Counted from the first letter of the stretch, positions 2,430-43,699 are shown. The stretch: DNA of 59,108 bases from Welwitschia mirabilis (GCA_051453625.1 JBOZIK010000001.1:6398147-6457254); one strand, 5' to 3'. Notes: generated by a model not told the origin, from the sequence alone. Numbers and translations: made by a program.

Positions 2430-2925
2430 TGCATTTTTTCTAGAAGGTTTGCATTTTTTCTAGAAGGTTCCTTGTACACTTATAGAAGTGTTAAGCAAAC
2501 ATAGATGGATCGTCTTTACTATCTCAGAAGAGGCCTTCTATGTTAATAGAAGGTGACTTCGAAACTTAAATAAAGGTCTTTTTATAATTGTAGAAGAGGC
2601 CTTTTGAGTTTATAGAAGGGCTCTTTCTACTATTTCAGAAAAGATCTTCTATACTTGTACGAGGGATCTTTGAAATTTATACAAGTGTCCTTTCATAGTT
2701 TCAAGTGAGGCCTTCTATACCTTGTAGAAGGGGTCTTTTAGATGTATAGAAGGTGTATTCTACCATTTTCAAAGAGGCTTTTTAAAGGCTTTATAAGGGG
2801 TTCTTTGTAATTCTAAAAAGGGGTCTCCTACCTATTTTAGAAAAGGTCTTCAACAATTCAAGTAGCAAATTTTTTGTAAGTCTTAGAGGGCCTCTTATAG
2901 TTTAATAAGAGGGTCTTCTAAAGGT
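2430..2925. repeat. Degenerate ~22-bp minisatellite with a near-palindromic AGAAG(A)GGCCTTCT core
   Basis: Recurring tagaag/aggcc/ttcta variants, e.g. cagaagaggccttcta 2526, tagaagaggcctttt 2591, gaggccttcta 2707, tagaaggggtctt 2725. Confidence 0.65.
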
Positions 2926-6050: not shown

Positions 6051-6059
6051 AGGGAAACC

Positions 6060-9972: not shown

Positions 9973-9984
9973 TCCCCTCTAACC
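9973..9984 (-). other. Polypurine tract
   Basis: GGTTAGAGGGGA on the minus strand, immediately before the 3' LTR. Confidence 0.75.
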
Positions 9985-11030
9985 AGTCTTTTGCTAGTGC
10001 CTTAGTAGAAAAAGTCAATAATAATATGATTAAACATGGAAAAGTTATCTATGTCAAAGTGCGTTAAGTGTGTGAATGATATAACTTGAATTTTATGACC
10101 AATTTTATATGATTAAGGCATCAAAGTAAAAAATTTTAGTGAAAATTGAGATGCCATGCCCCCAACCAAAACTTGACTTTATCCTCAAAGTTTATGGTAA
10201 AAATTTTAAGTTATTTAAAAAAATAAGTGTGGGTGAATCGTAATGATTTTTTTATTGAAAATAATGTAATATAAGTTAAGGAAAGAGGCTCATGATTTAC
10301 AAATAAACCTGTGCTAAATAAAAAAACTCTTTGTAAAAACAGTTGATGCCTTAGGAGTTATTCTTCATGAAAATGATATGAAGTGGAATGTAGTGAAATT
10401 ATGCATGTAAATAAGATGGAAAATGTGTAAATGGAGTAAAACCAGAAATGGATGAATAAATAAGAAAACTATCTTAAGTTATTAATCCTTATTACATTTC
10501 TATATTTTTAGTGAACTACGACATCAACAAAGTTAATTTTAAACTAAGTAACATATAGGAATCTATGGAATAGATGCAAATCCTAGGCATGAAAGTTAAG
10601 AAACATGGTTCACATAAGGCCTCTGATTACCACCTTTTCATTCCTTTGTTTTTCATTTCTACCTTCGCATATGTTGTTAGTATTATACCTTTAAACCACA
10701 TTGAGCATTCAATGTTAACAACATTTTCTACCAACATAGTTAATCATGTTGTTTTGTGTAAAATTTAGTGCTACATTGCCAGTGAGGGTTTATAACCCTG
10801 ATGTAGATGAACATGTTACAATTAGATCATTAGAGATGCATTATCAGTAGGTGTTTATAGCCCCAATGTAGTTAACTAAATCCAAATAAGTAATTAGTAT
10901 TATGTGCTTTTGGGGAAGAGATATATTATTTTTCTTTTTTTTGAAGATATAGTGGGTAGGTAATTTTGTGTTACACAAATGCACAATGGCACTTGAGATT
11001 TTGTAATATTTTCCATATTATGTTCCCTAC

Positions 11031-11098
11031 CACTACTGGGGTTTGAACTTTAGACTTCTAGATCCATGTGTCTATGACCTTACCACTTTGGTAAGCTA
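11031..11098 (-). other. tRNA-derived/SINE-like relic
   Basis: Minus strand TAGCTTACCAAAGTGGTAAGG...AAGTTCAAACCCC has A-box-like and B-box-like (GTTCAAACC) motifs at tRNA-like spacing. Confidence 0.4.
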
Positions 11099-22156: not shown

Positions 22157-25150
22157 TTTTTTTTTAATTTTCAAAAATAAGATCATATATTAAGAACATA
22201 GAAAATATACAACATAGCATAAAAATCAACAAAAAAACCCAAGAAAAGAATCAAAGCTAATAAGCTTAGACCAAACTAAATAAAAATAGAGAAGAGAAAA
22301 AGAAAAAAATCAAGAGATTAACCATATTAAGAGACTAGAACCATATACCATAAGTCTATACAAGTTTATCCATGTGATAAAAATAATAGATGGATCTTTG
22401 CTTCTTATTAGTAAGGACATTCTTTATGCCATTCAGTTCATTTATCTTCTTTAAATCTCCTTGAAAGTTATTCTTATTTTTATCTAGATGCCATATTAGC
22501 ATCAATCTTCTATAAGCACTTATGATTTCTTACTAAAAGGCCCTTGTTAAAATTCCTAGAATCCTATAATAATCTTTTCGCTCTCTAGCAGTCATTATTT
22601 CATCAAATTCCTGCTTCATCCCTGAATTTAAGTGAACTTTCTTCTTTATTTATTCTTCTTCATAATTCTCAAGAAAGGATTTTAAAGAGTCTGAGATTAT
22701 AAGGCTTTTTTCTTTACTTTTTTGCATTTATTAGACCTAGATTCAGGTGCTTTCCTAAGGTATCCTTGAGTCTTACTACTTTTATATACTGAGCCATTGT
22801 TACTAATGAAGATAACTTCATATGAAGAATCCCTTCCACTTATTGAATTTCTTATGTAATCCTAAGACTTCACAGGATCTCTTTGCACTTATTTACTTAT
22901 GTTAATAGGTGAAAAATCCCCTTGTGGCTCTTCCTTAGAGGAGGGGTCTTTTGAGAGAGGCTTCTTCTTCATTTTTATCCACAAGAGTAGCCTTTCATTC
23001 TTTTTAACAAGAGAACTAAGCCCTTTCTCTGCATCAAAACTAGAACATACTTCTGACCTCCATTTTATCTATTAGGTAAAACTAAAACCATGTCTTCTTT
23101 CATTTGTATAAGTTTTGCACCCTACCTTTTTCTTCTCTTCATTGACCGTGGAGTACCATGAGGTTGAGGATGAGAAGGTAATTTGAATTTTTATAGAAAT
23201 CAAGTAAATGGTAAACCAAACCTTAATGCTTTCTCCCTAGCCTTTATTTTAACTTTTTTATAAGATAGAATAGGATATTAATTCTATGTCTTTTATAAAC
23301 AATGATAGGAAAGCAAAAAAATAGTCCCTTAAACTTTAAATGATTACACTCTTGGATTAGCTACCTATCCACGAATTCTATTGCTAGATGCCATGGCTCA
23401 TGCAACTCTGACTTTTGATGTGATCCTTCATCATTCTTAGGGTCCTCCTCCTAAAGAATCTATTTGCATCTAGATACTCCACTGTTAAAGGAAATAACAA
23501 GTCTCCTTCTTTAGCAAGCCCAAGGGCTCGAGTAATTAGACTCGACGATATCTTCTATCTTCTTCTTTCAATCCTTAGCTTATCATTCACTATTACTTTA
23601 CTTATGATAAAATTTGGATCCCCATGTAGGGAGACAAGGGGATCTTACCTGATATCAATAATGCATTGCTAAAGCTTAGGATTTTCCCTAAAATTTAAAT
23701 CACTTAAGGGCTTATGATGGAAATGTTTATTCATTCTTCTTACTATTAAAATATAATTATTTAACTTTTGATACTTAAAAAAATATTATGAACTTGGGAT
23801 GATTGACTTCAAAAATAAATTAGTTTTTAACTACCTATATGTACCATATAGGAATTTCCAGGAAGTACCTTGGAATATTAGTTACTTTATCTTAGGTTCA
23901 ATCTTTAGTAAAGGCTTGCAAGAGTCCCTAACTATGTGGCATTCCCTAAGGAGATGTTTAATGGACTTTACAAGCCCATAGTTCTTACAAGTAGGGGGTA
24001 AATTAAAACATTTCTTACTTATTTTATATATTATTAATACCCTCCCTATAACTATTATCCATTTTAATACCATAAATTTACCTATAATAGAGTACTTCTA
24101 GGTGTTTTAATAGAGTGTATTTATAGTAGAACCTTTAAACTTACTTACTTACTATTAATAATTTTAACATTCTTTTCCTTAATAAGCTAGGTCTTTAAGA
24201 TATTTATCAATCTCCGTATATCCTCTATTACTTTTTCTATAGTATTATTTCCTAAGCAAGGGAGAGACTCCATTCCTCTGTAGTACTGAATCTTATGACT
24301 AACATTTCTCTTAAGCTAGAATTTTATTGGTGAGATTTTAGTAATCTTATTTGCTTTGTTTTTCTATAGGATATTGAAGTGCCAAAAGGGCACTTGATTT
24401 TATTCCACTTTCCATCTAGTGAGATGCTTTAGCTTTACTCTCCCTCTATAGAGAGCCTTTTAAAAAATAGAGATCCATTTCTTCACATCCCAATCTTTGT
24501 ACTTTATTTTTAGTAATTTTATTTAGGAGGGTTCTCCACTTGCCTCAATCTTTTTATTAAGTTCACTTCGTCTAATAATGTACTATTCTTTATGACTTAA
24601 ATACCTTAACTTCCTACTTCTATTAGCTAAGATATCTCATTTTAAGCCACTATGTGGATTTATTTCCTCCTCTTCTATCTTCCTAAATGAAGTTTTTAGT
24701 AATTTTGTTTAGGATTGTTTGGAATTTTCTTGAAATAATTCTTATTGAGGTGCTATATTTGGTAATCACTAACATAACTAAATTAACTAGGATAATTCTT
24801 CCTTTACTAGATACAAAAGATAATATTCTAACTATGACTTGTTTTTCTTATTTTCTGACTAAGAGTTTATTCTATTCCATTGAAAAATAGGTATTCCTAG
24901 GTACAAATTCTTAATATTTCCTCTTTGAAAGATTAACATTTGTTTTATCACTCTTTGTAAACACTAGCCTAAGTGTTCATAAAGTAGGCTCTACTTTTTT
25001 GCCAACTAATTGCTAGTCCTGATTCTTTTACAAAGATGTTTTACCCATTTTTGATGACTCTAATTTACTACAAATTTACTTCCACAAAGATTACTAAGTC
25101 ATCTGTGTAACGGTTATACATTATTTCCAAGCTATGAAGTATTATTTTGT
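22157..25150 (-). mobile_element. 5'-truncated L1-type LINE, copy E (divergent family): RT end, zf-RVT, accessory domain, C-terminal J-domain
   Basis: Poly(T) at 22157. YTDDLVIFV at about 25084-25110 and LYLGIP at about 24890-24906. zf-RVT-like PPTCKNYGLVKSIKHLLREC in ORF 23882-24073. J-domain at about 22385-22580. Confidence 0.85.
22385..22580 (-). pseudogene. J-domain (DnaJ) coding remnant in LINE copy E
   Basis: Manual translation: KDYYRILGILTRAF**EIISAYRRLMLIWHLDKNKNNFQGDLKKINELNGIKNVLTNKKQRSIY. Confidence 0.85.
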
Positions 25151-25358
25151 GACTTTTCATCTTGGTTATATATGCTAAGATTTGTATGCATACCATGATC
25201 GTATGCTTAGAGATACATGAAAATCCAAATGAAACCTTAATGGTGTGCTTACATTTAAAAGCAAGCTCTTTAGTATAGTAAAAATGAAGAAATATTTTAG
25301 AGAAATAAAATTTTAATTTATAAAATATTACTCATGATTTCTTGCTTTTCTGTTTCCC

Positions 25359-25376
25359 AACAAGTGCTATTAGAGC
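25359..25376 (+). other. LTR 3' end and decayed tRNA-iMet PBS
   Basis: AACA AGTGCTATTAGAGC resembles CA-AG-TGGTATCAGAGC. Confidence 0.55.
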
Positions 25377-25474
25377 TTTGGAGGAGATTTTTTAAAGCTC
25401 TTTTTAGAGTTTTTTTTAAGTATTCTTTTTATGGCTTCTTGGGCTTCTCTTTTGATCCTCTCTTTCTCTATCTA

Positions 25475-27100
25475 TTTTTTTCTTGAAAAAATTAACCATT
25501 ATATTAAATGAAAATTATTACAGAGGGGGCAAAAAGACCCTATACTAGGAGGTATAAGAAACCTAATCAACAAAAACTAGCCTATAGAATTCATATGAGC
25601 CTACTGGATATAAAGAAAATTTGGGGATAAAAACATTCCAAAATACTAAATCTAGTATAAAACAAGTATGACAACACTATGTAAGACTAGAAGGGATAAA
25701 GGATTCATATCCCCTACAATTGAAAAAGAGGTGGCCATGTTGGTGCTAAACCAAAAATCATTCCAAATCATTTGTTAAAACCTCGAAATCCTAATTCACT
25801 TCTTTGAATTCCTCTACTCTTATATATTTTCTATTAGGATGTAGTATGAGAGCCTTCTTTCAGTAACTTAACTTAATAGCATTCAATTAAGATCCATGTG
25901 AAATTCCTAGGATTAAGAAAATGAATCTTTTCAATCCATGAATTGTAGCTAGCAAGAATTCTCTTCTTGCATGGTCCATATTAGTGTCCTCATGGGGCTC
26001 TTGATTTTTGTCTTTAGAGAAGGAATCCAAATGGGATTGGGAATTTGACTTCTTATTATGATTAGAGCTATCTTCTACCTTCTGAGGTGAGGCCTCTTCG
26101 TCTTGCTCTGGATGCATATGCTCTTGTTCCTAGGCTTTGAACGATGGTTCTTCTTGAACTGCATCTTCCTATGCTGGGGATGAAATCATTTCCTCTACCT
26201 AAACTTCTTAGGGTATAGTTGCCCCTTTTCAAGACTAGGAGCTTTTTGGCTCGGTCTCCCTCTTAAGTTGATAAACCACATCATTCTTAGATCTTTTCTT
26301 CTTTTTCCCTTCTAAAAGACATCTTATCTGAAGTCCTTCACCAAGGAGGAGGGGAATTGAAGGCCTCCTTCAACCTTAGGTTCCTTGTAGCTCTTCAAAA
26401 TGCCGTGATAAGGCTTGAGTGCCTTAAAGAATATTTTCATTATAATGATTAAATAAAGAAGTGTGATAAGGTCTAAGGCCTTGAGAAAGGCAAAATGTAA
26501 CCCTTACAGCTTTCAACAATAACCAGTCTGAATGAAGTATTAGTTAATCATCTCGGCACTTAAACCCCATTAAGGTGGTAGCACCTTACATCTGGTATGA
26601 CCACTTGACAGCTTTAGGACACCTCTTAGAAGAAATAGAAGGCTTTTCACTATTCTTTGCTCTTAAGAGAGATTCTTTCCCTTATCGCGGGAATGTCCAA
26701 TAGGTAGAAAAGGGATTCTTCTATAATTGTGATTGAAATTCTTCTGAACATGGTTCTTTGTCCTCTTCATCTTCTATAAATCAAGGTAATATTAGCCTTA
26801 GGTTCTTCTTTCAGCTTATGTAAGAGTGCTCCCTAGACTAGGGCCTACATGTTATTCTAAAGGGTAGAAAACCCTTTAAATAGGCTCAAGTCTGATGGCC
26901 TAATTGTTGGCATAACCCTCATAGCTATCTTTATTTGTAAATGGTACCATTTGATCTTTCTGATGATGTTTATAGAAAATTCAAAGGGGATGTTATTAAA
27001 TATCACTTCATCATGGCTATGCCAGATCTACCATAATGTTAGGCATATCCCATCTTTTAAGCATGTCTCAAATATGTATCCCCTTTCTTTATATTATCTT
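25475..27100 (-). mobile_element. 5'-truncated J-domain LINE, copy A
   Basis: Poly(T) at 25475. LW*IWHSH post-zf-RVT motif at about 27010-27035. Accessory domain at about 26400-26930. J-domain LILGISHGS*LNAIKLSY*KKALILHPNRK..EFKEVN*DFEVLTND at about 25710-25940. Confidence 0.85.
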
Positions 27101-27109
27101 TTATCTTAT

Positions 27110-30100
27110 TTTCTATTTTTTAAGGATTTTTTTAAAAATATAAAAATATTTTTGAAAGGCCATTATTTTGAAAAGACCAACGAATTCTACAACCTTAGAC
27201 AAGATTTCATGATAATAGCATAATATGAGCAAAAATTTATGAAATATTTGAGATATATTCCTAAATTTGTGGTAATGATAAGGTAAATATTTGTGACTAG
27301 TATACATTAAAGAATTCAAAATAAAGTCAAATTATTTCAATTAAAGACTATTGTAAAGGCCTTAGAGAAGGTCAAACTTAGTAAGAAATCATGAACTATG
27401 AACAAAAATCTTAGAGAGAAAAGGAGAATGTCTCAAGATAATAGAAGAATGCAATCATGGAAGAAACCATTTAATCAAAATACAAGTATGATCATAGGAA
27501 AAGGTAAAGTAAATATGACTATAGTAAATACTAGAACAACACATCAATTATAAGAAAGAATGCAGATTCAACCAATTAGAGGAATTTGCAGGATCACTAA
27601 GAAACAATCAGTTTAAGGATCTTAAGGACGTGGGATGTTTTTTATGTCAAGGAGCTTATTATGTAAGGGGCTGTCCTAAAAGAAAGAAATAGAAAGAAAC
27701 TAGAACAAATGTTAAAAAGCTATATGCCTTAATCTCCAAGGAAAGCAGTCAACTAGAAGTAATTTTGAAAACTATAGGTACTTTATTAAATCTTCTTGTA
27801 AAAATTTATAGATTTAGGTGCATCCGATTCTTTTATTTCATACTTAATAACTAGCAAGATGTTTTCATAAATTAAGAAGATCAATCAGTTGCCAGTAGGA
27901 CTTCTAAATGGTAGTCAAATCAAAATAATAGAGAAACATCTATATGTACATTACATATTAATGGTTATAAATTCAAAGTAAAATTATTAATATTGAAATT
28001 AGTCTACTTTGATATTATTAGAGAAATGAATTTATTACAAAATAAATCTCAAATAGATTACTATCATAGTGAGGTTACAACATTAAATTTAAAAGAGAAA
28101 AGAGTGTATTTACTAGTTGTAGCAAGACTACTATCAGAAAAACTAATTAAGGGTAAGCAAATGAAAAAAGAATTTAAACATAAACAAGAATTTGAAATTA
28201 TTAAATTTTGTCTCTCTCTTCAAAGTAAGCTAAATATGTCAGATATCTAGTAATGCAGGAATTTTTATACATCGTTCCAGATGAGTTACTAGAATGTCCT
28301 CTAAAAAGAGAAGAAGATTTCAAAATAACTCTTAAATAAGGAGGAAAAAACCAATCATGAGGGCATTGTACATAATGCCTACTGTGGAGTTAGGAGAAGT
28401 AAAACTTAGTTAGCGGAACTTTTAGATAAAGAATTAATTAGACCAAGTATTTTACTAGGGGGTGCGCTAGTATTATTTGTTAAAAAGAAGGATGAAGGAT
28501 TGAAGCTATATGGGCATTATAAAATGCTAAAAAGAGTAACAATTAAAAATATTTATTCATTACTCAGAATAGATGATTTATTTGATCAACGAAATTTTTC
28601 TAAGTTTTTCTCAAAGATTGATCTCAAATCAGGTGATCATTAACTTATAATAAAAGAAGAAGATATTTTAAAAATAGCATTTCACACCAGGTATGGCCAT
28701 TATGAATTTCAAGTAGTGCCATCTGAACTCACCAATGCACCAGCTTCATTTGTAATAATTATAAATAATAATTTTTGAACATATTTAAATGAAATGTTGG
28801 TGGCATTTATTAATGATATTTTGGTGTATTCATTAACTAAGAAGGATCATGAAGAGAATTTATGAATAGTGTTAAATACATTAAGAATAAATCAATGTTA
28901 TACCAACCTTGAAAAGTGTGAATTTTGGTTAACTAACATTAAATTTATAGGGCATCTAATTTTAGAAGAAGGAATCAATGTGGATAGTAATAAAGTATAA
29001 TTAGTGGTATATTGAACCAACCCAGAATCAGTAACTATGGTAAGAAGCTTTCTTGGATTGACTAGATATTATAAAATATTTATTCCAAACTTTTTAGAAA
29101 TTGTAGTTCCTCTTACATCCTCATTGAATAAAAATTATTCCTTTAATTAGATAATATGTTTGATGAAGCACTTTAAGATTTAAAAGAGGAACTTGTATCT
29201 GCATCTATTATGAAAAATGTTAGAACCTAGGAAAATGTATATAGTTTATACTGATGCTTTTGGGGAAGGATTAAGAGTAGTATTAATTTAGGACAGAAGA
29301 GTTATTGCTTATACATCATGATAACTAAATAATCATGAAAGGAATTGTTTAGTGCATGATTTAGAACTCACTATTGTAATTCATGCACTCAAAATTTGGA
29401 GGCATTATATATATTGAGAAAAATTTAAAATTTAAATAGATAATAAAAGTCTCAAACACATTTACATTCAATCCAACTTGAATCTTAGGCAAAGGAGATG
29501 GGTGAAATTCTTGAAATATTATGACTTGACAATAAACTACCATGAAGGAAGGGCAAATAGAGTGGCTGATGTATTAAGTAGAAGAAGGCATTGTGTTAAT
29601 TGTTTAAGTGCATAAAAATATTTTTATAAAATTATTTTTGATTTATAATAAAACTTTCATTGATGCAAAAAGGTAAAAGAAGGAATTGAAGGATTTCTAG
29701 TTTTTATTAATGAATTTGTTAGTTTTCAAGATAAAATTATAATATCTAATGAAGAGCATGTGAAGCAAGTTATCTTTAAAGAATTTCATAGTACATGATA
29801 TGCTATTTACCCAAGAGTTAATAAGATGTATAAAAACATCGAAAAACATTTTTAATAACCAAGAATAAAGTTTAAAGTTGTTAAATTTGTGGCAAAAATA
29901 TATGACCTATCAACTAGTTAAAGCTGAACATCAATATTCAGCCAAAGTTTGTATCTCCATGACATTCCAAAATGGAAATGGGAAGTAGTTGATATAGATT
30001 TTACTATAGATCTATCTAAGACAAAAGAAGGTTATGATTCTATTTTTGTAGTAGTTAATCTCTTAACCAAAAGTGCATATTTTCATCTAGTGAAAACAAT

Positions 30101-33014
30101 AGATTTAATTGAAAGTATTACAAAAGTATATATAAAGAGTATAGTCAAATTGCATGAAGGACCTAGAAGAATTATTTTAGATAAAGACAGTAAGTTCAAC
30201 TCTAGATTTTAGACATCATTTTAGAAAGAATTAGAAAATAAGTTAAACTTAAGTATAGCCTTTCATCTTCAGATAGATGGTTAAAAGAAAGAACAAATCA
30301 ACTTTTGGAAGAGTTATCAAGATCAATAATATTGGCTTTTGTAGAATCTCGGATGGATCATTTAGCATTAATGTAATTGACTTAGAATATTAGCTATCAA
30401 GAATGAATAAAAGCACATTGTATAAAGCATTATATGGAAGGAAATGTAAAACACTAATAACATGATTTGATGTAGTAGATAAGAATTTAGTAAAGGTACC
30501 ATCTACTCAATATTTAGAAGAGAAAGTGAGAATGATTAGAAAAAGATTAAAGGTGGTAATGGATAGTCAAACTAAGTATGAAAATCACCAAAGAAAACAT
30601 ATAAATTTCATGAAGGAGATCATGTTTATCTTAAATGCTCATCTTTTAAAGGAGTTTTTAATTTTGGTAGAAAGGAAAAATTAGCATCAATATTTATAGG
30701 GCCTTATCAAATTATCAAAAGGATTAGATCAGTAGCTTATGAGTTAGTCTCATCACCACATCTATTTTTTTTTTTGAAAAAAGTATGTATATTAAACTAG
30801 GAAATGTACATCAAGGGGCGAAACCACCTAAGAATAATAGAATTAAACTATTCATAACAAAGAAGTAATCAACTAGCTAGAAAATGGAAACTAAAATAAC
30901 AAGACAAAATGACAAAAAACCGCCCCTCGATGACAAAGTAATAAGAAACTTGCTATTAGGTTGTAAACACTAGTAGAAATGGATAAAATAAAACATAGAG
31001 CTATGGATAGATAAGGTGAAAATGATTCTTAAAACTAGAAATTATAGAGACTCAGAATTAAATTGGAAGATCTTTGAAGGAAGAGGATTATAGTCCTCCA
31101 CAGAAAGGAAACATATTAGCATGGTTGTGTTTAAGGAGAAATCTATCCAGATCATTTGAGAGGACTTCAAATGCTTGATTTATCTTCTTAAATTCTTTAG
31201 CACATGCCGAATTTTTATCTGGATGGAGATGGAGAGCTTTCTTCCTATAGGTAAATTTTATGGAATGGGGTAGAGCTCGGTGAGAGAGACCCAGGGTAAC
31301 AAATGAGCACCTTTTCAACCCCTGAATCATTGCTAGTAGTACCTTNNNNNNNNNNNNNNNNNNNNNNNNNNNNNNNNNNNNNNNNNNNNNNNNNNNNNNN
31401 NNNNNNNNNNNNNNNNNNNNNNNNNNNNNNNNNNNNNNNNNNNNNNNNNNNNNNNNNNNNNNNNNNNNNNNNNNNNNNNNNNNNNNNNNNNNNNNNNNNN
31501 NNNNNNNNNNNNNNNNNNNNNNNNNNNNNNNNNNNNNNNNNNNNNNNNNNNNNNNNNNNNNNNNNNNNNNNNNNNNNNNNNNNNNNNNNNNNNNNNNNNN
31601 NNNNNNNNNNNNNNNNNNNNNNNNNNNNNNNNNNNNNNNNNNNNNNNNNNNNNNNNNNNNNNNNNNNNNNNNNNNNNNNNNNNNNNNNNNNNNNNNNNNN
31701 NNNNNNNNNNNNNNNNNNNNNNNNNNNNNNNNNNNNNNNNNNNNNNNNNNNNNNNNNNNNNNNNNNNNNNNNNNNNNNNNNNNNNNNNNNNNNNNNNNNN
31801 NNNNNNNNNNNNNNNNNNNNNNNNNNNNNNNNNNNNNNNNNNNNNNNNNNNNNNNNNNNNNNNNNNNNNNNNNNNNNNNNNNNNNNNNNNNNNNNNNNNN
31901 NNNNNNNNNNNNNNNNNNNNNNNNNNNNNNNNNNNNNNNNNNNNNNNNNNNNNNNNNNNNNNNNNNNNNNNNNNNNNNNNNNNNNNNNNNNNNNNNNNNN
32001 NNNNNNNNNNNNNNNNNNNNNNNNNNNNNNNNNNNNNNNNNNNNNNNNNNNNNNNNNNNNNNNNNNNNNNNNNNNNNNNNNNNNNNNNNNNNNNNNNNNN
32101 NNNNNNNNNNNNNNNNNNNNNNNNNNNNNNNNNNNNNNNNNNNNNNNNNNNNNNNNNNNNNNNNNNNNNNNNNNNNNNNNNNNNNNNNNNNNNNNNNNNN
32201 NNNNNNNNNNNNNNNNNNNNNNNNNNNNNNNNNNNNNNNNNNNNNNNNNNNNNNNNNNNNNNNNNNNNNNNNNNNNNNNNNNTAACAAATGAGCACCTTT
32301 TCAACCCCTGAATCATTGCTAGTAGTACCTTCCATCTGGATGCATTCATGTCAAGATCTTCTTGAGGTTGGAGATGAATTTCCATCAAAGATGAATTAAA
32401 ATTGAAGCTCTATGAAGAGCTAGGGCTCAAAGCTAGAGAAGGAGAGGGTTGGTTATGCCCACCATGTTCCTAAGGGTTAAGAGAAGGGTAAGATAGAGAC
32501 TGTTCTTAGGTTGGGCTAGGAGGATGTTTCTTAGAAGTATTCTGTTAAGCTGGGGATGAAGACGGTCCCTCTGAGTGACCTGGGAGTGAAGGAGCCCCCC
32601 TCTTGCTAGGGCTGGATTGAGTTGCTTCTTCTTCAGGAATAGGATTCCTATCAGAAGAGGAATGTCTTGTAGATGTTCTCTTAGGGGGGTCTGGTAAGGC
32701 TCACCACCACATCTATTAATTCTTCACAATGTTTTTCACAAATCCTTATTAAGGAAATGTTTATCTAATGAGACAATGATAATTCCTAATTAAGAAGTAC
32801 ATATTCTTTCAAGTTGTTCAACTAAAGCTTAACCAATTAACATTTTAGATCAAAAGCAAATGATACTATGAGAAAAACTATATAACTTTATAAGATTTAA
32901 TGGTTAAATGAATATATAAAAGAAGCAAATTGGGAATAAAAACAAATATTAAGTAATGGAAACCAAATATTTTGATAGGTTTCTAGGAGGATACTTCTTA
33001 AGGAGGTGAGAAAT
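27110..33014 (+). mobile_element. Decayed chromoviral Ty3/gypsy internal region (gag-AP-RT-RH-INT-chromodomain), interrupted by LINE copy B
   Basis: EFYNLRQ gag motif, knuckle remnant at about 27635 and DLGASDSFIS at about 27810. [19 protein letters not shown] motifs, and ORF 29949-30212 IPKWKWEVVDIDF. AYELV|...LHNVFHKSLLRK is split by the LINE. W..EANWE chromo-like motif at about 32900-32935 and PPT-like AAGGAGGTGAG at about 33000. Confidence 0.85.
30767..32699 (-). mobile_element. 5'-truncated J-domain LINE, copy B, with an 18-bp TSD
   Basis: TSD CTCATCACCACATCTATT (30749-30766) / CTCACCACCACATCTATT (32700-32717), and poly(T). J-domain with intact HPD in ORF 31088 onward (YRKKALHLHPDKN...[14 protein letters not shown]). 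Confidence 0.92.
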
Positions 33015-34930
33015 ATCATGTCCCAATTTTTCAAGGTTATAAAACTTAGCCTAAGAATTACTTAAATATTTTTATAAATAAAATTTAACAATATAGTCTA
33101 AATTAATGTCTTGTAGGATAAAATATTTATTATAAATGGCTGAATATGTAGAGGTAATGAAAATTTTATTTTGATATTATTCTTTGGATATTATTACTGA
33201 ATATATCATCTTGATCAGTTACATAAAAAAATTACAATTAAATCATTTTTCTCTTATCATGGAAAAAATTGTGGCATTCTCTTGAAATTTGGCATTTCAT
33301 TCTTAGCTTATGGAAGTTATCAGTAATGATTATTTTGGAATTTAAAAATATTATATGTTCTGACTAACTTGTCTTCTTTTTGCTTATGCTAAATAATGCC
33401 ATAAGACTTAAATCTTGTTAACTTATGCAAACATCTTTTTCATGATTATTATTTCACAAAATAAGTAGTCATTATTATGATGAAATATTATATGCATTAA
33501 ATGATAAGAAAAAGTAATTATCATGGGTTATGAAATCTTACCATCTTCTTTTTAAGATAGTATCTTTTCATATCCTTGTGTCTCTTCATATCCCTAATCC
33601 TCTTGCTATATATAAGACTTCTTTCTTCTTTTATTTGTATATTTTTAAAAACTCCCTTATTATCAGATCTTAGTGACTTTATAACTTGGTGCTTCAAAAA
33701 GAATTAGAGTCTTAGAATCCTTAAAAGTCTTGAAGTCTTTAAAAGTTAATAAGTCCTACATATAATTTTGGGGATGGTCTTATTTAATTCTTGCATCCTT
33801 GTATGATCCTATTTTATTCTTGAATCTTACATAGACCTAGTTAATTCATGCATCTTTGTATGGGTCTTACTTGTATATTTATTTTTTTATCATTATTGCA
33901 TTTATTTAAGATTTAATTAAGTGCATGTTTTATCACTTTCTTAATAAATTATAAGATTTTAAGTAGTATTCTTAGTTATGAGTATTGATTTCTATTTCCT
34001 TAATAAATATTTTAGAAGTTGAGTGTGATTGAAATCTAATGTTTACTCTTGATGAGAATTTATGTTTTGGTAATGTATCTAATCTTACATATTCTTATGA
34101 TATCTTAGATTACAAATCTTATGGAAATGAGAATTCGACAAATCACTGAATGAGGCAGTAAAATGTGAGAATCCACATATCACCAAATGAGGCAGTGGGA
34201 CTGATAGAATCATAGATTTTTGAACAAAGCAGTGGACTCTATAGATTGTCAAATGAGGATATGAGAAATCCATAGATCATTAAATAAGGAAGTGGACTCA
34301 TAGATCATCGAATGAGGTAACAGAGGAAAAAAAATATATGAAAAATTTATAAAAGAACTAGTTATTCTTATATCATTTCTATAAGTTCATCGCTTAGAAA
34401 TCTTGATTTTGCCTTAGCTATCTTGAGACTTAGAATCCTTCAACTTTTATCTTGCCTTGCTTGGGTCATACTGGGATCTATGAAATTTTCACTGTTCTCA
34501 CTCCATATTATTATGTGAACAAGTGAAAAAACTAGATCTTCTTCAAAGATAAATTAATTACTAAGGAGGGCATGATGAGTGGAGATTATTCCTTCTAGTT
34601 TATGTTGTGAAATTATATTGAAGTGATAAACCTATATTCTTATCAAGGATCTTGAATATCTCAATGTTGTAATTATTTTGTAATCTTAAAAGTACTTTGA
34701 AACTTGAATTATGTATGTTGTGAAATATATCTTCTTGAAATTGCAATAGAAATATGGAACTTTATTCTTATATTCTTATAGACTTTCATATTCGAATCTT
34801 GAATATAACATGTTTTACTTATTACATAAATAGATGGAATACAAAAAAAATTATGTATATTCTAATTCATTTATTTTTATAGAATTGTAAAATGTTTAAA
34901 ATATTTTATATCTAATTATTATGGGACTGT
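33015..34930 (+). repeat. Probable 3' LTR of the chromoviral element (3' boundary uncertain), with internal ~30-40 bp repeats at 34140-34325
   Basis: Follows the PPT and has a reverse-complement homologue at 54640-55902. GATCA..AATGAGGCAGTGG repeats. Confidence 0.6.
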
Positions 34931-35639
34931 GTTAGGTTAAGTAGGCAAACATTTTATACTAGATGCTAACTCATCATATTATTGTAGTATGTTACTTAAT
35001 ATAAGATAAGGAACATTTGATTGTAGGAAACTATCATGGAGTACGAGACCATATAAGAATAATATGAAAAGCCATTATTAGAAAGTTTAGTTATTGCCCA
35101 CCATCACATGATGTTATATAAAGAAGTAGGGCCTTAATTCAAAGAAGTAAGAATGATTAAAACAAAGAAAACAAATATATTAGAAAAAGACATTTTTATT
35201 AAAGAATAACCACCATGGATAAATGAGCCCTATCATAATTATTTAAACTATTTTAAATAATAGCCCACTCCTTCTTAAACTATAAATTCTTAAGGGTGGT
35301 TGTTAAGGAAAATGGTGGTAACCTGAAATGATAATAAGAAAGGGGCGTGTTGATCAATAATTGAAGCATTTGAAAGAAGATGTAATTATTATGGACACTT
35401 CTATTATAAGTTATGGCCTTGAATTAATATCAATTTAATGATTTACTCTCTCTTTTTTGTTGCCTTTTTCTAAATTTCATTTTAATGCATGGCCCACACC
35501 ATTTCTTTAATCATCTATCATTACTCTTCTATTACAAGTTATGGATCCCACTTAGTATCTTTTGAAGTACTCATATTGCTATAGATTATATTCTTAAATA
35601 TTTGTGATGCCCCTTTTTAATCAATAAATCTTCTAAACC

Positions 35640-36867
35640 TTTTTTTTTAAAAGAAGTATATATATTAAACTAGAAAATGTACATCAGGGGGCAAAATCGC
35701 CCAAGAATAATAGTAGAACTAAACTGTTTATAATAATGAAGTAATCTACTAGTTGGTAAAGGGGAACTAAAACAGCAAGCCAAAAAGGGGCAAAACTGCC
35801 CCTCAATGACGAAGTAACAAGAAACTTCCTAGAGGGTTACAAATACTAGTAGAAACAGACAAAATAAAAATGCTAACAGACGAGGGCGAAAATGCCTCTT
35901 GAGACTAGAAATTACAGAGAACTCAGAGTTAGATGGGAGAATCCATAAAGGGAGAGGATTACAATCCTCTATAGAAAGAAAACATATTATCATGATTGTG
36001 TTCAAAGAGAAATCTATGAAAATTATCTGAGAGGACTTTAAATGCTTGATTTATTTTCTTAAATTCTTCAGCACCTACTAGATTTTTGTCTGGATGGAGG
36101 CAAAGAGCTTTCTTCTTATAAGTCAATTTTGTAGCCTAGGGTAGAGCTCGATGAGAGAGCCCTAGGGTAATAAATGGACATCTTTTCAACCTTTGAATTA
36201 TTACCAGCATCACCTCCCATCTGACTACATTCATGTTAAGAACTTCTTGAGGTTGGGGATGTATTTCCATCAAAGATGAGTCAGAAGTAGATCTCTGTGA
36301 AGAGCTAGGGCCTGAAGCTGAAGAAGGAGAGGGTTAGGCAAAACCAATTTGTTCCTAAGTGTTAAGATAAGGGTGAGTTGGAGATGGTTCTTTGACTGGG
36401 ATAAGAGGATGCTCCTCGGGAGTCTTCTATTGGATTAGCGATGAAGATGGTCCCTCTGACTGACTTAAGGACAAAGGAACCCCCTCTTTCTAGGGCTAGA
36501 TTAAGTTATCATTTCCTCAAAAATAAGGTTCCAATCATAAGAGGAACTTCTTCTAGATGTTCTCCTAGGGGGATTTGGTAAGGACAATGATAAGGAGGAG
36601 GGGGAGGATCTCTTTAGCCCAATATTCTTGTGCTGCTTTCTATAGGACCAGGATTAGTCCTAAGTACTTTGAGGAGTCCGTACATTTGAGAACTTGAATG
36701 AAAAAGTAAGGTAGATTCACCTGGCATCCTATGTTAAGAGATTTAAGAAATGTGAAATAGATACCTAAAATCTTAGAACAATTTCTTGATTGAATGAAAT
36801 ATTAGTTCATAAGCTCTATCCCAAGTCCTCATGGAGGTGGTAACGCCTTCATGCTAATGTGTTCATT
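35640..36867 (-). mobile_element. J-domain LINE, copy C (3' end; 5' part lost in gap)
   Basis: Poly(T) at 35640 and a 3' UTR homologous to copy [53 protein letters not shown] at about 35960-36180. Confidence 0.9.
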
Positions 36868-36983
36868 NNNNNNNNNNNNNNNNNNNNNNNNNNNNNNNNN
36901 NNNNNNNNNNNNNNNNNNNNNNNNNNNNNNNNNNNNNNNNNNNNNNNNNNNNNNNNNNNNNNNNNNNCTATGAAGGGAGAGGA

Positions 36984-39900
36984 TTACATTCCTCTACAGA
37001 AAAAAATCATATTACCATGGTTGTGTTTGAGGAGAAATCTACCCAGATTGCCAGAGAGAACTTCAAATGCTTGATTTATCTCCTTAAATTCTTCAGCACC
37101 TTCTGGATTTTTATCTAAATGGAGGCGAAGAGTTTTCTTCCTATAAGTTGATTTTATAGCTTGTGGTGGAGCTCTATGACAGAGTCCTAGAGTGATAAAT
37201 GGGCATCTTTTCAACCGTGCATTATTTCCAGTAGCACCTCCCCTTTGGCTGCATTCAGCTTCAGAGCTTCTTAAGATTAGGGATGAATTTGCACTGAAGA
37301 TAACTCAGAAGTGGAGCTCTGTGGAGAGCTAGGGCTGAAGCTAGAGAAGGAGAGAGTTGGACATGCCCACCTTGCTCCTGAGGATTAGGAGAAGGATGAA
37401 CTAGAGACAATTCTTATGCGGGGCTAGAAGGATGCTCCTGAAGAGTCTTCTATTGGATCAGGGATGAAGATGGTTCTTCTAAGTAACCTGGGGATGAAAG
37501 CACCCTCCTCTTGCTAGGGCTAAATTGTGCTACCATTTTCTCAGGAATAAGGTTCCTATTAGAAGAGGAACTTCTTATAGATGTTCTCCTAGGGGGATCT
37601 AGTAAGGAAGATGATAAGGAAAAGGGTGAGGGGCCTCTCTAGCCCTAGCTTCTTATGCGGCTCTCCATAGGATCAGGATTAATCCTAAGTACCTTGAAGA
37701 GTCCTTACACTTAAGAACTTGAATGAAAAAGAAAGGCAGGTTCACCTGGCATTCTAAGTCAAGAGCTTTAAAAAATGAAAAATGGATATATGAAAGCTTA
37801 GAACAATTTCCTGATTGGATGAAGTAATGATCTACAAGCTCTGCTCCAAGTCCTCATGGGGGCGGTAATGCCTTCCTACTGATGTGTCCACTGGGCAGTT
37901 TTGAAACTCCACTAGGAAAGAAATGGGGAGCTTCTCATTGGCATCTACTTCTAAATAGAATCCGCTCATCTTTCGTTGGGATTTTCAGCAGTCTGGAGAA
38001 AGATTCTTCCAAAATTTCTAGTGGAATTCTTTAAAAATTAGTGCATCCTCCTTTTCATCACCTGTAAAGGGGTCCCCACCCCACTACTTATATTTTTTCC
38101 TAAAGAGCCAGGCATCTCTCGAAGAGGCCTAAGTCAGTAGGCTTAAAAGTTGGAGTGGCTTCCATGGTGATTTTGATTTAAAAATAAGTGAGGATAATCT
38201 TTCTTGCTGTATATATAGGAAAGGATAAGGGAGCATTATTACAAATTAGATTGTTTCTGATCTGCCAGATCTGCCAGAAAGTCAGGTGAATTCCATTTAA
38301 TAAATACATATCAGGGGTGCTATAGGTTTGGTAGTACTTCATCATTATGATAATTAATTCCTTACTCTAAACACCTTGATGGAAAAGATGCTGTGCTATT
38401 TCTGGATTAGACTAGTAGATGGGATAGTTAGGATCAACTTGAATCCCCTTTTAGATAATTGATCTCTTGTTAAAATTCGCTGATGTTCCTTTAGCCAATA
38501 GAAAACTTTAATTTTTTTTAGTATATGTTCCCTCTAATACTTCTTATAACCATACTATTTGCTATACTTCTTCATAAGAATCTGCTTGGATGTTTTAGTC
38601 TGAGAAATGTTTAATTTAGTAAGTTATTAGCAAGATTTGCATAGATTCTTCCTTAGATATGATAACCTGTGATCAATTGTTTAGCTTCTATACTTCTGAT
38701 TAATTAAATCACACTAGGGTTTCCCTCATTCTTATAATCTCTTTAGGATCCTATGAGCTCCAGTGAGAATATAATCTTTAGGTTTTTGAGTCCTCCAACC
38801 TTCTTATTCCTTTGGATGGGTAATAATCTTTCATTTACAAAGATGTATTTTGTGGTGGTCTTTTTCTCCTAACTAAATAAAGTCTTTTAAGATCCTTCAA
38901 TTTTTTGTATAATATTTTTTTGGGGAGGGGACGGAGGGGGGGGGGGTGATAATAAAAGCTATATACTGGAAAGATGAGATTAAGCAGGAATTTGTGAGAC
39001 TGATTTTAGCTTTTGAGGAGAGAAAGTTGTTATGCCAAAAACTACACCTCCTTTGGATGGATTCTAAGATTTAATTCCAGGTACTTGTCTTGTGCCAATT
39101 TTGAAGAGAGATGCCCAAGTAGATATCCTGTAGGTCTCTTAAGTTTGTATTCAGAATTCAGGCAATTTTACCCCCTTTGATACATTATTTGACCAAGGTG
39201 TATATTCTTGATTTATTCCAATTAATATGAAGCCTTGTTATCTTTGCAAATGTGATCATGACATTTTTTATAGCTTTTGCTTGCTGATAAGTCACCTTGA
39301 TTATAATGATGGTATCATCTGCATAGTGATTGTTGAGATATGTTTGACTTCCATTTCTGATTTTTGTAACTCCATTGTTTCTTAAGAAACCTGTAGAGAA
39401 TTCATCACAAATAGAAAAAGGTATGGGGATAGGGGGTCCCCTTGTCTCAAACCTCTTCCCACTGAGAAAAAGTTTGATATATAGTTATTAACCTCTACAC
39501 TAAATTCAGCAGAAGCCTGCATGTCTAGCCATAGATTAATAATATCTTGAGAGAAGTCAGATTTTCTAAACATGCACCCTAAAGCTTGCTAACTAATAGA
39601 GTCATAAGCTTTAGCAATATCTAGTTTAGCATTGAGAAATGGAAATTTATATTTTTTGATAGAATAAATAATCTTATGAGTCAAAAGGATTTGGTTTTGG
39701 ATATATCTTGAGTGAATGAAGCTAGCTTACTTATCTAAAATTACATTAGGAAGCAAGAGAATGATTCAATCAACCATAATTTTTGCAAAGATTCTGTAAA
39801 TGACGTTGCAGACCCCTAAGAGTATAAAGTCCTTTGGTTTACTAGCATCCTTTTTTTGTGGTATGAGAACCACTCTAGTTCTGTTCATCTCTTTAGAAAT

Positions 39901-41256
39901 CCATCTATTATGGAAGATTTCTTACATTACATCATGGATGTTATCTTCTATGATAGAGAAGTATGATTTGAAGAGTTTGACTAGCCACTCATCAAGGCCA
40001 GGGGCTCGGTTATTTTTCATCGATCTGACTACGGTTAAGATTTCTTTTTTATTGAGGGGTTTAATCAACATGTTATTATCCTCCTTTAAAACTTTCTTGT
40101 TTTCTAGAATTAGGTTGGAGGTGATATCGTCCCACTCCCAGATTCTCTGAAGATGGGCCTACAGTTCCTTATCTATTTTCTCTTTACTTTCTATGTCTTG
40201 ACCTCCTATAGTAAGTTTTCTGATTTTGTTATCAGATCTGTGCTGGTTAGCTTACTGAAAGAAGAATCTAGTATATTTATCATCCTCTTTAAGCCACTTG
40301 ATCCTTGAGTGTTCTCTCTAATAATGTTTTTCATCATCATGTATTTCTTGGAGATCCATTAGGAACTGATATTCTTTATTTTGAAGACTGTCCTGATTAC
40401 CTTCCTCCTCCTGCCTGACTTGAATACATTTGAGTTCCTCCTTAAGTTTAGCCTTTGAGTTACACCTCTCTTATCTTTCCTTTTCCAATCTCTTATGTGA
40501 GCCTTTAAGGTATTGAGGCCTCTATACAAGAAAGTTATAGGTTGGATACTATCATAATGTACCCAAATCTTTTCCAATAGTACTCTAGATTTTGTCCAAT
40601 TGATTTAATACCATTCTATATGAAACAGAGTTTTTGAGGATGAAAACATCCCTAGTTTAAGTATAATGGAATGGTGATCCGAGGTAATCTTGTTCAGACC
40701 ACGGGCTTCGAGTGAAAGTTTAGCTAGATCCTTCCCAGCCATTACTCTGTCAATCTAACACATTATCAGCTCAGTACCTGCTCTTTTATTTGGTCATATG
40801 TATTTGCATCCAGTAATAGGGACATCTATGTGGGAGTATCTTATCAAAAAATCTTTTAGGATTGAAGCCCCCCCAGAGTTCTAGTTGTCACAACCTGATT
40901 TTTCCCAGCAATGGAGGCATTAGTTAAAGTCATACAATATTAGCCATTTAGATTTATCTACTACAGTTCTCTGTGCTTCTTCCAATATCACAACTTTAGA
41001 TAGATTGTGCTTCAGGTTGTAGATATGTGTAACATTCAATCTTCATTCTTACAAATCAAATCTGCCTCTTTTTTGGTACGACCCCAATAGTAAAAGATGT
41101 CCATTGTTTCCCCAAATTCATTTTTCCCATATCATTTTTTAAGTTTGTTTCCTGTAAGCAAAGTAAATTAATATTATTTTGATTAATCATATTTTGTAGG
41201 GTATTTTTCTTATAGGAGGACCCTAAGTCCCTACAATTCCATGAGATACAATTCAT
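36984..41256 (-). pseudogene. Decayed LINE ORF2 with C-terminal extension: APE endonuclease-RT-zf-RVT-accessory domain-S/P linker-J-domain
   Basis: EN: MNCISWNCRDLG..LCLQET and TSDH at about 40675. RT: GRGLRQGDPLSPYLF, HYADDT at about 39310-39330, YLGI at about 39115. zf-RVT: KIKVFYWLKEHQRILTRD and FWQIWQIRN at about 38250-38280. J-domain ORF at 36984-37214. Confidence 0.85.
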
Positions 41257-41927
41257 TGGGAGTATTTTTGCCCTTTTCTGGGCACTTGTCCTTTTCTTAA
41301 TGTGTCTTTAATAGTTGCTTGAAAACTATTTGTGACATTCTCTATTGTTTCTCATTCTCGTAAGGTTCTATTGCTAGGGCTTCTTTTCATTTGGGTTTCC
41401 ATTTCATTGGATTCTTCATTGTGTAGGAATTGTAAGGGGTTATTATTGTCCATGAGAGGTTGAAATGGATTCTCTTGTTCCAGAACTTTCTTTTTCTTGT
41501 TTTCCTTGGGAAAAATAGTGGTAATTTTTTCTATTTGTTTCTTTCATTACTTATTTTAGCATATGTTCTGATTATGACTNNNNNNNNNNNNNNNNNNNNN
41601 NNNNNNNNNNNNNNNNNNNNNNNNNNNNNNNNNNNNNNNNNNNNNNNNNNNNNNNNNNNNNNNNNNNNNNNNNNNNNNNTTCCAGAACTTTCTTTTTCTT
41701 GTTTTCCTTTGGAAAAATAGTGTTAATTTTTTCTATTTGTTTCTTTCATTACTTATTTTAGCATATGTTCTGATTATGACTATTCTTCCCACAAAAAGTA
41801 TAGGTTTTATTTTGCTTTTCTTCAATATTAATTAGTCTTTTCTGGCATTCTTTGCATAGATGATCCAATCTTCCACAATGTGAGCATTTCTTCTGGAAAG
41901 GAGCGCATCTTCCAGAGGGGTGTATTA
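41253..41927 (-). pseudogene. LINE ORF1 C-terminal part with a CCHC zinc knuckle
   Basis: CSHCGRLDHLCKEC (CX2CX4HX4C) at about 41845-41886. The ORF1 stop TGA overlaps the ORF2 ATG (ATGA, 41253-41256). Confidence 0.85.
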
Positions 41928-43699
41928 NNNNNNNNNNNNNNNNNNNNNNNNNNNNNNNNNNNNNNNNNNNNNNNNNNNNNNNNNNNNNNNNNNNNNNNNN
42001 NNNNNNNNNNNNNNNNNNNNNNNNNNNNNNNNNNNNNNNNNNNNNNNNNNNNNNNNNNNNNNNNNNNNNNNNNNNNNNNNNNNNNNNNNNNNNNNNNNNN
42101 NNNNNNNNNNNNNNNNNNNNNNNNNNNNNNNNNNNNNNNNNNNNNNNNNNNNNNNNNNNNNNNNNNNNNNNNNNNNNNNNNNNNNNNNNNNNNNNNNNNN
42201 NNNNNNNNNNNNNNNNNNNNNNNNNNNNNNNNNNNNNNNNNNNNNNNNNNNNNNNNNNNNNNNNNNNNNNNNNNNNNNNNNNNNNNNNNNNNNNNNNNNN
42301 NNNNNNNNNNNNNNNNNNNNNNNNNNNNNNNNNNNNNNNNNNNNNNNNNNNNNNNNNNNNNNNNNNNNNNNNNNNNNNNNNNNNNNNNNNNNNNNNNNNN
42401 NNNNNNNNNNNNNNNNNNNNNNNNNNNNNNNNNNNNNNNNNNNNNNNNNNNNNNNNNNNNNNNNNNNNNNNNNNNNNNNNNNNNNNNNNNNNNNNNNNNN
42501 NNNNNNNNNNNNNNNNNNNNNNNNNNNNNNNNNNNNNNNNNNNNNNNNNNNNNNNNNNNNNNNNNNNNNNNNNNNNNNNNNNNNNNNNNNNNNNNNNNNN
42601 NNNNNNNNNNNNNNNNNNNNNNNNNNNNNNNNNNNNNNNNNNNNNNNNNNNNNNNNNNNNNNNNNNNNNNNNNNNNNNNNNNNNNNNNNNNNNNNNNNNN
42701 NNNNNNNNNNNNNNNNNNNNNNNNNNNNNNNNNNNNNNNNNNNNNNNNNNNNNNNNNNNNNNNNNNNNNNNNNNNNNNNNNNNNNNNNNNNNNNNNNNNN
42801 NNNNNNNNNNNNNNNNNNNNNNNNNNNNNNNNNNNNATTAAAATAAATGAATTTCTTTAGGTAAAATTTCGTGATCTCATTATTGTTTTCTTTTATAAAA
42901 CTACATAAATAAATTAAGTAATTATTTAATATCTTAATTAAATTTGAGTCTCTTACAAATTATATCTTAGTACCAATTTGAAGCTTTTAAGTGGATCTAC
43001 ATTTTGGTATTAAAGCATCATTGTTTGAAGTTTTTCAGTTATTAAAGTAGCCTTAACAACAATTAAGTCACTTTGAGTCATGTTGTTATATGAAATTTGA
43101 TACCTCTTAAAATTTAGTAAATTAATGTATTTTTAATTATATAAATGCCATACTTATTATTACATTATTATTAGACATGTCTTATTCCTTAATTTTCAAA
43201 AATATTATTTAAAGAGAATAATTCATGGTGTTTTATTAATGGGTTATTTAGTTACCAAAACTTTGTTGGAACTAATTAAACTAAAGGGACTAGCATCATT
43301 GTGAATTCTACTTGCATCATTTATTTTTTAAAGATTAACTAGTTTAGAAAGAAAGTTAAGGCTAAATAGAGGGTAAGTTAATGAATTAACCTTATAGCCC
43401 AAAGATAAATTAGTCCATTAAGACTAAGGACTACATGTGTATGTTTGCATCACTGCTCAATTATTAATGATGAGGATGTCTAAATGAAATTCAAAATCCT
43501 AAGAGAGGCTATATATGTAATGTCCACATTAAGGTGAATGATTTATTTTATTCTTCTTTCATTCCTGAAGAAAAATTTTCTTTATTCCCACCTACAACTT
43601 ATTTATTTTAACAATTTTATGATGAAGAAGGAAAAAAGTTTAAATAAAAATTAGTAATGAAGTAAAAAGATATTTCTAAGAAGATCTTTAAAAAATGAA

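Follow-up and report, generated by a model that had tools for sequence, protein, structure and literature searches.

We identified the decayed remains of five long interspersed nuclear elements (LINEs) that carry a DnaJ-type J-domain in a 59,108-nt stretch of the Welwitschia mirabilis genome (GCA_051453625.1 JBOZIK010000001.1:6398147-6457254), referred to here in its full length as the window. These copies, designated A to E, are probably dead members of an old, very abundant lineage of L1-type plant LINEs. The unit of this lineage would have consisted of ORF1, an ORF2 with endonuclease (EN), reverse transcriptase (RT) and zf-RVT, a further domain (domain X), a linker, and a J-domain that was translated in the ORF2 frame and docked Hsp70. 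We give this reading as a whole a probability of about 0.62. Parts of it are firmer. At the level of sequence, comparison of the copies demonstrates that the unit copied by target-primed reverse transcription includes the J-domain, that the J-domain is older than the split of the subfamilies, and that it was kept by purifying selection, together with domain X, while the elements were active. The J-domain is present in at least two, and probably three, divergent lineages. A preliminary description of copy A, made from its sequence, had proposed that ORF2 ends in a J-domain. The J-domain is indeed a selected part of the retrotransposed LINE unit, but every copy is broken and its translation as the ORF2 C-terminus can only be deduced.

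The J-domain as part of a LINE unit

Copy A (36968-41927, minus strand) retains remnants of EN, RT, zf-RVT and a putative ORF1, followed by domain X, the linker and the J-domain (Table 1). It had been described as a near full-length LINE. Remnants from the putative ORF1 to the J-domain are present, but the copy died long ago: it carries dozens of stops and several frameshifts, and it ends in gaps. Scaffold gaps have removed its 5' end, its 3' untranslated region (UTR) and one internal stretch, the rest of ORF1 falling in the N gap 41928-42836. The longest stop-free stretch of copy A is the J fragment (106 codons, 36987-37304). Thus, we infer a continuous ORF2 in this copy and observe none.

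Pfam scans of copy A were run on stop-free fragments. As single fragments, Exo_endo_phos, RVT_1 and zf-RVT score below the Pfam cut-offs (27.5 bits for PF13966). Translated with an X in place of each of its 4 stops (P0151), the RT matches 664 plant L1 ORF2 proteins at E<=1e-5 (best 2.6e-36), with 31-35% identity. Thus, copy A is a divergent L1-type plant LINE. In tblastn searches, plant L1 ORF2 proteins cover both EN and RT of copy A, with matches at 40485-40952 in the endonuclease part. Together with the Pfam fragments, these matches confirm the order EN-RT-zf-RVT that had been described. The earlier identification of ORF1 is tentative: a CCHC knuckle can be recognised by eye, but its Pfam match reaches an E-value of 0.088 only. 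Downstream of zf-RVT, copy A has a W..W..RN stretch that aligns with L1 ORF2 C-termini, and both zf-RVT and this stretch run into domain X without a gap.

The J-domain is placed in the retrotransposed unit by the collinearity of RT, zf-RVT and J on one strand in copies A and E, by the stop, UTR and poly(A) that follow J, and by the target site duplication (TSD) of copy D. In all four copies with an assembled 3' end (C, D, B and E), a stop comes after the J-domain, then a UTR of 190-300 nt with a TTTAATAT-like motif at its end, and finally an A-run; UTR and poly(A) had been reported for the sister copies. The TSD of copy D is 18 nt long (17/18 identical; 32700-32717 and 30749-30766). This copy starts within the linker directly after its TSD, and the second TSD follows directly after the poly(A). 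Searches for the TSDs of B and E gave weak A-rich 12-mers only, and none was found for C, the 5' end of which falls in a gap.

J-domain remnants occur at five places within 15 kb (22.3-37.3 kb) and in one orientation, all J-bearing LINE copies being on the minus strand; this agrees with the five copies of the module in 20 kb counted previously. At the nucleotide level, copies C and D share 76-80% identity with A across the last 0.9 kb (C 79%). Copy B represents a divergent subfamily. In tblastx comparison it is collinear with A over 38303->36990, a stretch that begins immediately downstream of zf-RVT and closes with J, with 40-57% amino-acid identity. Copy E is a much more distant LINE (38% amino-acid identity to A in RT and 42% in J), and its zf-RVT matches PF13966 at E 4.4e-4, under the 27.5-bit cut-off.

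The segment from X through the linker and J to the UTR (~0.9-1.4 kb) might be a separate, non-autonomous element moved in trans. Its position next to RT in A and E would then result from nesting or mis-scaffolding. Copies C, D and B comprise this module alone, A meets C across a scaffold gap, and the draft contains false gaps. However, LINE copies are normally 5'-truncated, and D begins in the linker, directly after its TSD. Furthermore, zf-RVT and W..W..RN of copy A run straight into X, E has the same order independently, and the codon constraint described below is unexpected in a non-coding passenger. We consider a separate element very unlikely.

Coding constraint

Constraint was measured from differences between copies, as Nei-Gojobori pN/pS with Fisher p. 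The tested frame was chosen by tblastx, and the other two frames of every segment served as controls. Between A and B, mismatches at the three codon positions show a third-position excess (29/21/50 in the X1 segment of domain X, 20/8/37 in X3 and 32/18/44 in J). The pN/pS is 0.40 (p 2e-9) in X1, 0.48 (p 3e-4) in X2, 0.26 (p 2e-12) in X3, 0.55 (p 0.006) in the linker and 0.35 (p 1e-10) in J. With synonymous sites saturated in this pair (pS ~0.8), the ratios are to be read as a significant contrast and not as an estimate. For J, pN/pS is 0.36 for C against B and 0.34 for D against B (p 3e-9 to 5e-11 for the B comparisons), and 0.38-0.44 within A, C and D (p 0.0008-0.015). It thus falls within 0.34-0.44 in all six pairwise comparisons. 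Control frames gave 0.68-1.8 in every segment, none of them significant. Because every copy has decayed neutrally since its insertion, pN/pS overstates the true dN/dS of the active lineages. These comparisons show J, X and the linker to have been constrained as coding sequence between subfamilies, and only in the collinear frame.

A different origin would be a host DnaJ exon, gained once by 3' transduction or template switching, that has travelled along ever since as a neutral passenger of no use to the element. Transduction of 3' flanks is an established property of LINEs, the five copies are dead, and three have lost HPD. Neutral evolution of J between subfamilies is refuted by its pN/pS of 0.34-0.36 against B, and more broadly by ratios of 0.34-0.44 throughout with non-significant controls. 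J and X are conserved although the linker between them is barely alignable. A one-off transduction is also contradicted by the presence of J across divergent subfamilies and in contig pieces numbering tens of thousands, and by the coding constraint. The nearest host gene, among the matches listed, is at most ~52% identical. A neutral passenger is thus already largely refuted, and we regard it as highly improbable.

Identity of the J-domain

The match to PF00226 was checked, and the J-domains of A, C, D and E score above the gathering cut-off of 27.8 bits (Table 1). Copy B was left unscanned owing to its five stops. An AlphaFold model of the J fragment of copy D, built on an alignment with database J-domains and therefore dependent on the Pfam match, has pLDDT 78.7 and helices at residues 2-18, 26-40 and 46-73, which agrees with the hairpin of helices II and III in solved J-domains. 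In a Foldseek search with this model, every PDB chain among the matches listed (~40, ranks 1-50) is a J-domain (probability 0.98-1.00, E 0.007-0.26, TM up to 0.75 by target), the domain being short.

We searched 1.84 billion protein representatives with a profile of the J copies in the window and found 9164 matches at E<=0.001, 8 of them at <=1e-10. The best 150 are ordinary J-proteins that are at most ~52% identical, the best with 47-52% over ~55 residues. The J fragment of copy A, compared with longer proteins, gave 72 candidates and none at E<=0.001. Among metagenome contigs, J of copy D matched 11 loci, all of them generic DnaJ genes (39-58% identical). With the closest database J-domains 47-52% identical, these comparisons do not allow a donor gene to be named.

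After VLS(D/N), copies A to D carry a conserved tail, RFLLKHNH..F.CRG (36990-37060 in A), instead of the usual end of helix IV. This tail is absent from database J-domains among the matches listed. The J-domain of copy E keeps the canonical ending VLTNKKQRSIYY.

One of the proteins matched by the RT of copy A, from metaclust (P0214, 1049 residues), contains EN (156-362), RT (656-887) and, at its end, an Hsp70 fragment (963-1049; 291-376 of the 599 positions of the profile). The likeliest explanation is a chimeric gene model, formed where a LINE was inserted in an Hsp70 gene.

Domain X, linker and decay

Domain X has no Pfam match at E<=10. In hhalign comparison with 22 C-termini of RNase H-bearing L1 elements, 26 columns aligned, covering only the W..W..RN stretch that precedes RNase H (probability 37%). 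No RNase H or RVT_3 signal was found in X, after zf-RVT, by Pfam or hhalign, and the earlier statement that the element lacks RNase H is upheld. Domain X may contain a very degenerate RNase H relic. A single-sequence AlphaFold model of X (pLDDT 34.2) was unusable. A 120-codon open frame on the plus strand (26861-27220) overlaps domain X of copy B in antisense. It lacks a Pfam match, is only 36% identical to the same frame in A, and probably arose by chance.

The linker is ~130-145 residues long, and Ser and Pro make up 32-40% of it, compared with a background of 11%. Nucleotide identity of the linker between A and B is only 0.39-0.49, whereas J and X are conserved. In copy D the linker occupies a single frame over 131 codons, with 4 stops and no frameshift.

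The in-frame stops look like decay and not design. Sister copies have CAA/CAG opposite three of the four in-frame linker stops of D, B has TGG opposite a TGA in X, and no stop inside J is common to two copies. Copy A mostly has A/T where most family contigs have G/C (from A to the contigs, A>G at 212 and T>C at 204 places; C>T at 124 and G>A at 180). The C>T decay of methylated repeats acts on Gln, Trp and Arg codons, and both the aligned codons and the A/T bias of copy A fit such decay. The stops at aligned A/B positions in X and the linker were at one point taken as a sign of non-coding sequence. This idea was dropped, given the codon periodicity and the alignment of most stops with CAA/CAG/TGG.

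Translation of the J-domain

Several observations weigh against an ORF2 that continued through X and the linker into a functional J-domain. An open ORF2-X-linker-J frame was found in no copy of the window and in no protein database searched. The frames of X and the linker are out of phase in A and C, at a homopolymer-rich junction. At one linker column, A, D and B have a stop where C has AAA, making an ancestral stop possible there. An ATG ~20 codons upstream of J is kept in C, D and B (peptides NMN, DMN and NMD), and A has CTG. The HPD tripeptide is intact in two of the five copies (C and D), and all copies are decayed. The best 150 of the 9164 profile matches include no recognisable member of the family, and PF00226 was found in 0/120 plant L1 ORF2 proteins (the best 120 of the 664 RT matches). 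J of copy E resembles that of A (42% identity over 38 residues) no more than generic J-domains do (up to ~52%), and independent acquisition in the E and A-D lineages, in two events, is possible. The saturation of synonymous sites and the choice of the tested frame by tblastx, both mentioned above, also belong here. Finally, the RNA reads number 287 and 112 (>=80% likeness), are mostly <90% alike and come from both strands, and at least one RNA read group derives from a frameshifted copy (hand reading of a loose end). The RNA reads probably represent leaky transcription of dead copies at most.

Some of these observations would be expected if J were a selected part of the LINE that was made as a separate protein of ~95-100 residues ('ORF3') from the conserved ATG, by reinitiation or from a subgenomic or processed RNA. 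The linker would then be non-coding or belong to ORF2 only. The ATG kept in three copies, the stop column common to A, D and B, and the phase shift between X and linker in A and C are all points in favor of such a protein. However, the linker has codon periodicity in the J frame (the pN/pS of 0.55 compares with 1.14 and 1.44 in the control frames), that of D remains in one frame over 131 codons, and three of the four stops of D align with Gln codons elsewhere. A separate ORF3 product therefore seems unlikely to us, and we prefer the reading in which J was the C-terminal part of ORF2.

Abundance of the family

Logan contigs of two organisms (X1 and X7) were surveyed for sequences with >=80% likeness to copy A. 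We identified 23,530 matching contig pieces in X1 and 27,679 in X7, most of them <90% alike. Summed depth over the 3' half of J was 6081 (X1) and 3976 (X7), inside the range of the LINE body (~500-14,000). Depth over the linker was lower (~560-1140), as expected for a poorly conserved spacer. Judged by these counts, the J-bearing LINE family is a large genome component in the two organisms.

At 37133 and 37050/37051, the majority contig letters change Thr and Gly of copy A to the Ala and Asp of canonical J-domains (KKAL.LH.DKN, VLSD). Hand translation of the loose-end consensus beside 37121 gives SSYRKKALKL in one organism and SSYRKKALRL in the other, ahead of the His codon, and beside 37053 it reads NDLGRFLLDH. 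These loose ends are in frame, and thus other subfamilies seem to keep the J frame open there.

Features of the window

The window is AT-rich (GC ~0.14-0.39 per 2 kb) and rich in decayed repeats. Its assembly is of draft quality, with nine N runs; outside these, the longest stop-free frames in the whole window are at most ~120 codons. The N runs at 31346-32282 (937 N, inside copy D) and 41580-41679 (100 N) are false gaps, the two flanks overlapping by 49 identical bases in the first case and by ~100 bases with 98% identity in the second. Thus, the scaffold duplicates contig ends at both places.

The five J-bearing LINEs (22157-37304, minus strand) are arranged partly head to tail. Copy E lies ~150 nt after the poly(A) of B, and C adjoins A across the gap. 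The cluster of copies in the same orientation looks like the result of repeated insertion beside earlier A-rich tails. Between copies B and D we identified the remnant of a long terminal repeat (LTR) retrotransposon (Ty3/gypsy-like; 27915-30209, plus strand). It includes an RVP_2 protease match (Pfam, E 3.2e-6 at 27915-28247) and, at 29928-30209, a fragment that appears integrase-like by eye and has no Pfam match.

Table 1. Coordinates of the J-bearing LINE copies and their parts, in window positions.
Feature	Position	Strand	Remarks
Copy A, putative ORF1 remnant with CCHC knuckle	41761..41927	-	C-x2-C-x4-H-x4-C by eye; Pfam zf-CCHC_4 E 0.088
Copy A, APE-type endonuclease remnant	40608..41307	-	Exo_endo_phos E 1.4e-3 on 41059-41307
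Copy A, reverse transcriptase remnant	39188..40158	-	RVT_1 fragments, E ~1e-4 on 39188-39588
Copy A, zf-RVT remnant	38399..38533	-	PF13966 E 3.4e-4
Copy A, domain X	37656..38303	-	~216 codons, one frame broken by stops only
Copy A, Ser/Pro-rich linker	37215..37655	-	S+P content; pN/pS 0.55, p 0.006
Copy A, J-domain and family-specific tail	36987..37214	-	PF00226 E 1.3e-10, 41.7 bits; H codon 37121; HPD reads HLD; stop 36984-36986
Scaffold gap, 100 N	36868..36967		removes 3' UTR of A and 5' part of C
Copy C	35640..36867	-	end of X, linker, J, stop, ~300-nt UTR, A-run 35640-35648
Copy C, J-domain	35965..36189	-	PF00226 E 3.4e-9, 37.1 bits; H codon 36096; HPD intact; one internal stop
Copy D	30749..32717	-	linker, J, UTR, poly(A) 30765-30775; 5'-truncated
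Copy D, J-domain	31094..31318	-	PF00226 E 8.6e-14, 51.8 bits; H codon 31225; HPD intact; no stop
Copy B	25475..27103	-	X, linker, J, UTR, A-run 25475-25481
Copy B, J-domain	25710..25934	-	H codon ~25850; HPN; five stops
Copy E	22157..25331	-	RT remnant 24984-25148, zf-RVT 23885-24097, J, ~190-nt UTR, A-run 22157-22165
Copy E, J-domain	22359..22589	-	PF00226 E 1.4e-7, 31.9 bits; H codon 22490; HLD; stop 22356-22358

Possible function

If J was the C-terminal part of ORF2, the unit would have read, in order, ORF1 (CCHC), ORF2 with EN, RT and zf-RVT, X, the Ser/Pro-rich linker, a C-terminal J-domain, a stop, a short 3' UTR and poly(A), with X, linker and J translated in frame with ORF2 in active elements. 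J-domains in all known cases dock Hsp70 via helix II and HPD, trigger ATP hydrolysis, and load Hsp70 onto nearby clients. The J-domain of the LINE would likewise dock host Hsp70 via its basic helix II and HPD loop, and trigger its ATPase beside the ORF2 protein (ORF2p) or the ribonucleoprotein particle (RNP). The flexible linker would tether J to ORF2p, so that the nearest Hsp70 clients would be ORF2p itself and its RNP. The element would then own a co-chaperone for the folding or remodelling of a large RT protein and its RNP. By analogy with known J-proteins we favor this recruitment of Hsp70 in cis; the alternative, a role in anti-silencing or at chromatin, is less specific. Dependence on host Hsp70/Hsp40 is common to retroelements and many viruses, the hepadnaviral RT and the polyomavirus T antigen being textbook cases.

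More tentatively, and at somewhat less than even odds in our estimate, an entire clade of plant L1 elements, old and hugely successful, may depend on a self-encoded J-domain, tethered to the RT by the flexible linker, to commandeer host Hsp70. It would be the first transposable element known with its own co-chaperone, intact and possibly active members would exist in both organisms, and X would be a wholly new LINE domain.

Comparison with known systems

The large and small T antigens of polyomaviruses carry a J-domain with HPD to harness host Hsc70. They resemble the LINE family in that a selfish element encodes its own J-domain. They differ in belonging to a DNA virus and in having J at the N-terminus; sequence likeness is limited to the generic J fold, and the function of the LINE J-domain is a prediction. 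Class III (DNAJC-type) J-proteins likewise have J without the G/F or zinc-finger regions of DnaJA/B, on an unrelated body that specifies the client. Here that body is the LINE ORF2, and in A to D the tail RFLLKHNH..F.CRG replaces the end of helix IV.

Among LINEs, an archaeal-type RNase H was added at the ORF2 C-terminus of plant L1 elements, according to PMC4686597, which refers to this work (Smyshlyaev et al. 2013). These elements likewise have an EN-RT-zf-RVT ORF2 with a foreign domain after the zinc-finger region, and their proteins are the closest to the RT of copy A among the matches listed (31-35% identity). In the family described here, a J-domain takes the place of RNase H, and X and a long, low-complexity linker intervene. 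The same paper describes a tobamovirus-like SF1 helicase at the ORF2 C-terminus of insect R1/TRAS LINEs, behind a spacer of >300 residues of no known likeness, and indicates that the ORF2 C-terminus tolerates foreign domains (PMC4686597). As in our family, a spacer stands between the LINE core and the extra C-terminal domain. R1/TRAS elements differ in LINE clade, in host kingdom, and in carrying a helicase rather than a co-chaperone.

Accessory domains have also been captured by other retrotransposons. Two reports describe an ALKB m6A demethylase in an orchid Ty3/gypsy element (PMC9289625) and DNMTs in dinoflagellate and charophyte retrotransposons (PMC5890265). In these reported cases, a host-type accessory domain reached fixation in a lineage of retrotransposons, presumably as a way to manipulate the regulation of the host; the elements are LTR or other retrotransposons, and the domains are different. 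In a full-text literature search, with subscription journals and Repbase/Dfam outside its reach, we found no paper on a LINE or other transposable element with a J-domain. Thus, LINEs with an added C-terminal domain are already known, and the J-domain as the added domain appears to be new.

Implications

Annotation pipelines may miscall the J-domains of this abundant LINE family as host DnaJ genes. If the reading preferred here is true, J joins the short list of ORF2 C-terminal captures, with RNase H and the SF1 helicase. Our results suggest that the J-bearing LINE carried its own recruiter of the host Hsp70 chaperone. If J is a functional co-chaperone fused to the LINE RT, chaperone recruitment would be limiting enough for retrotransposition to be worth encoding, and HPD mutants would provide a natural, genetically separable handle on the folding of LINE RNPs in plants, on their remodelling, or on their shielding from silencing.

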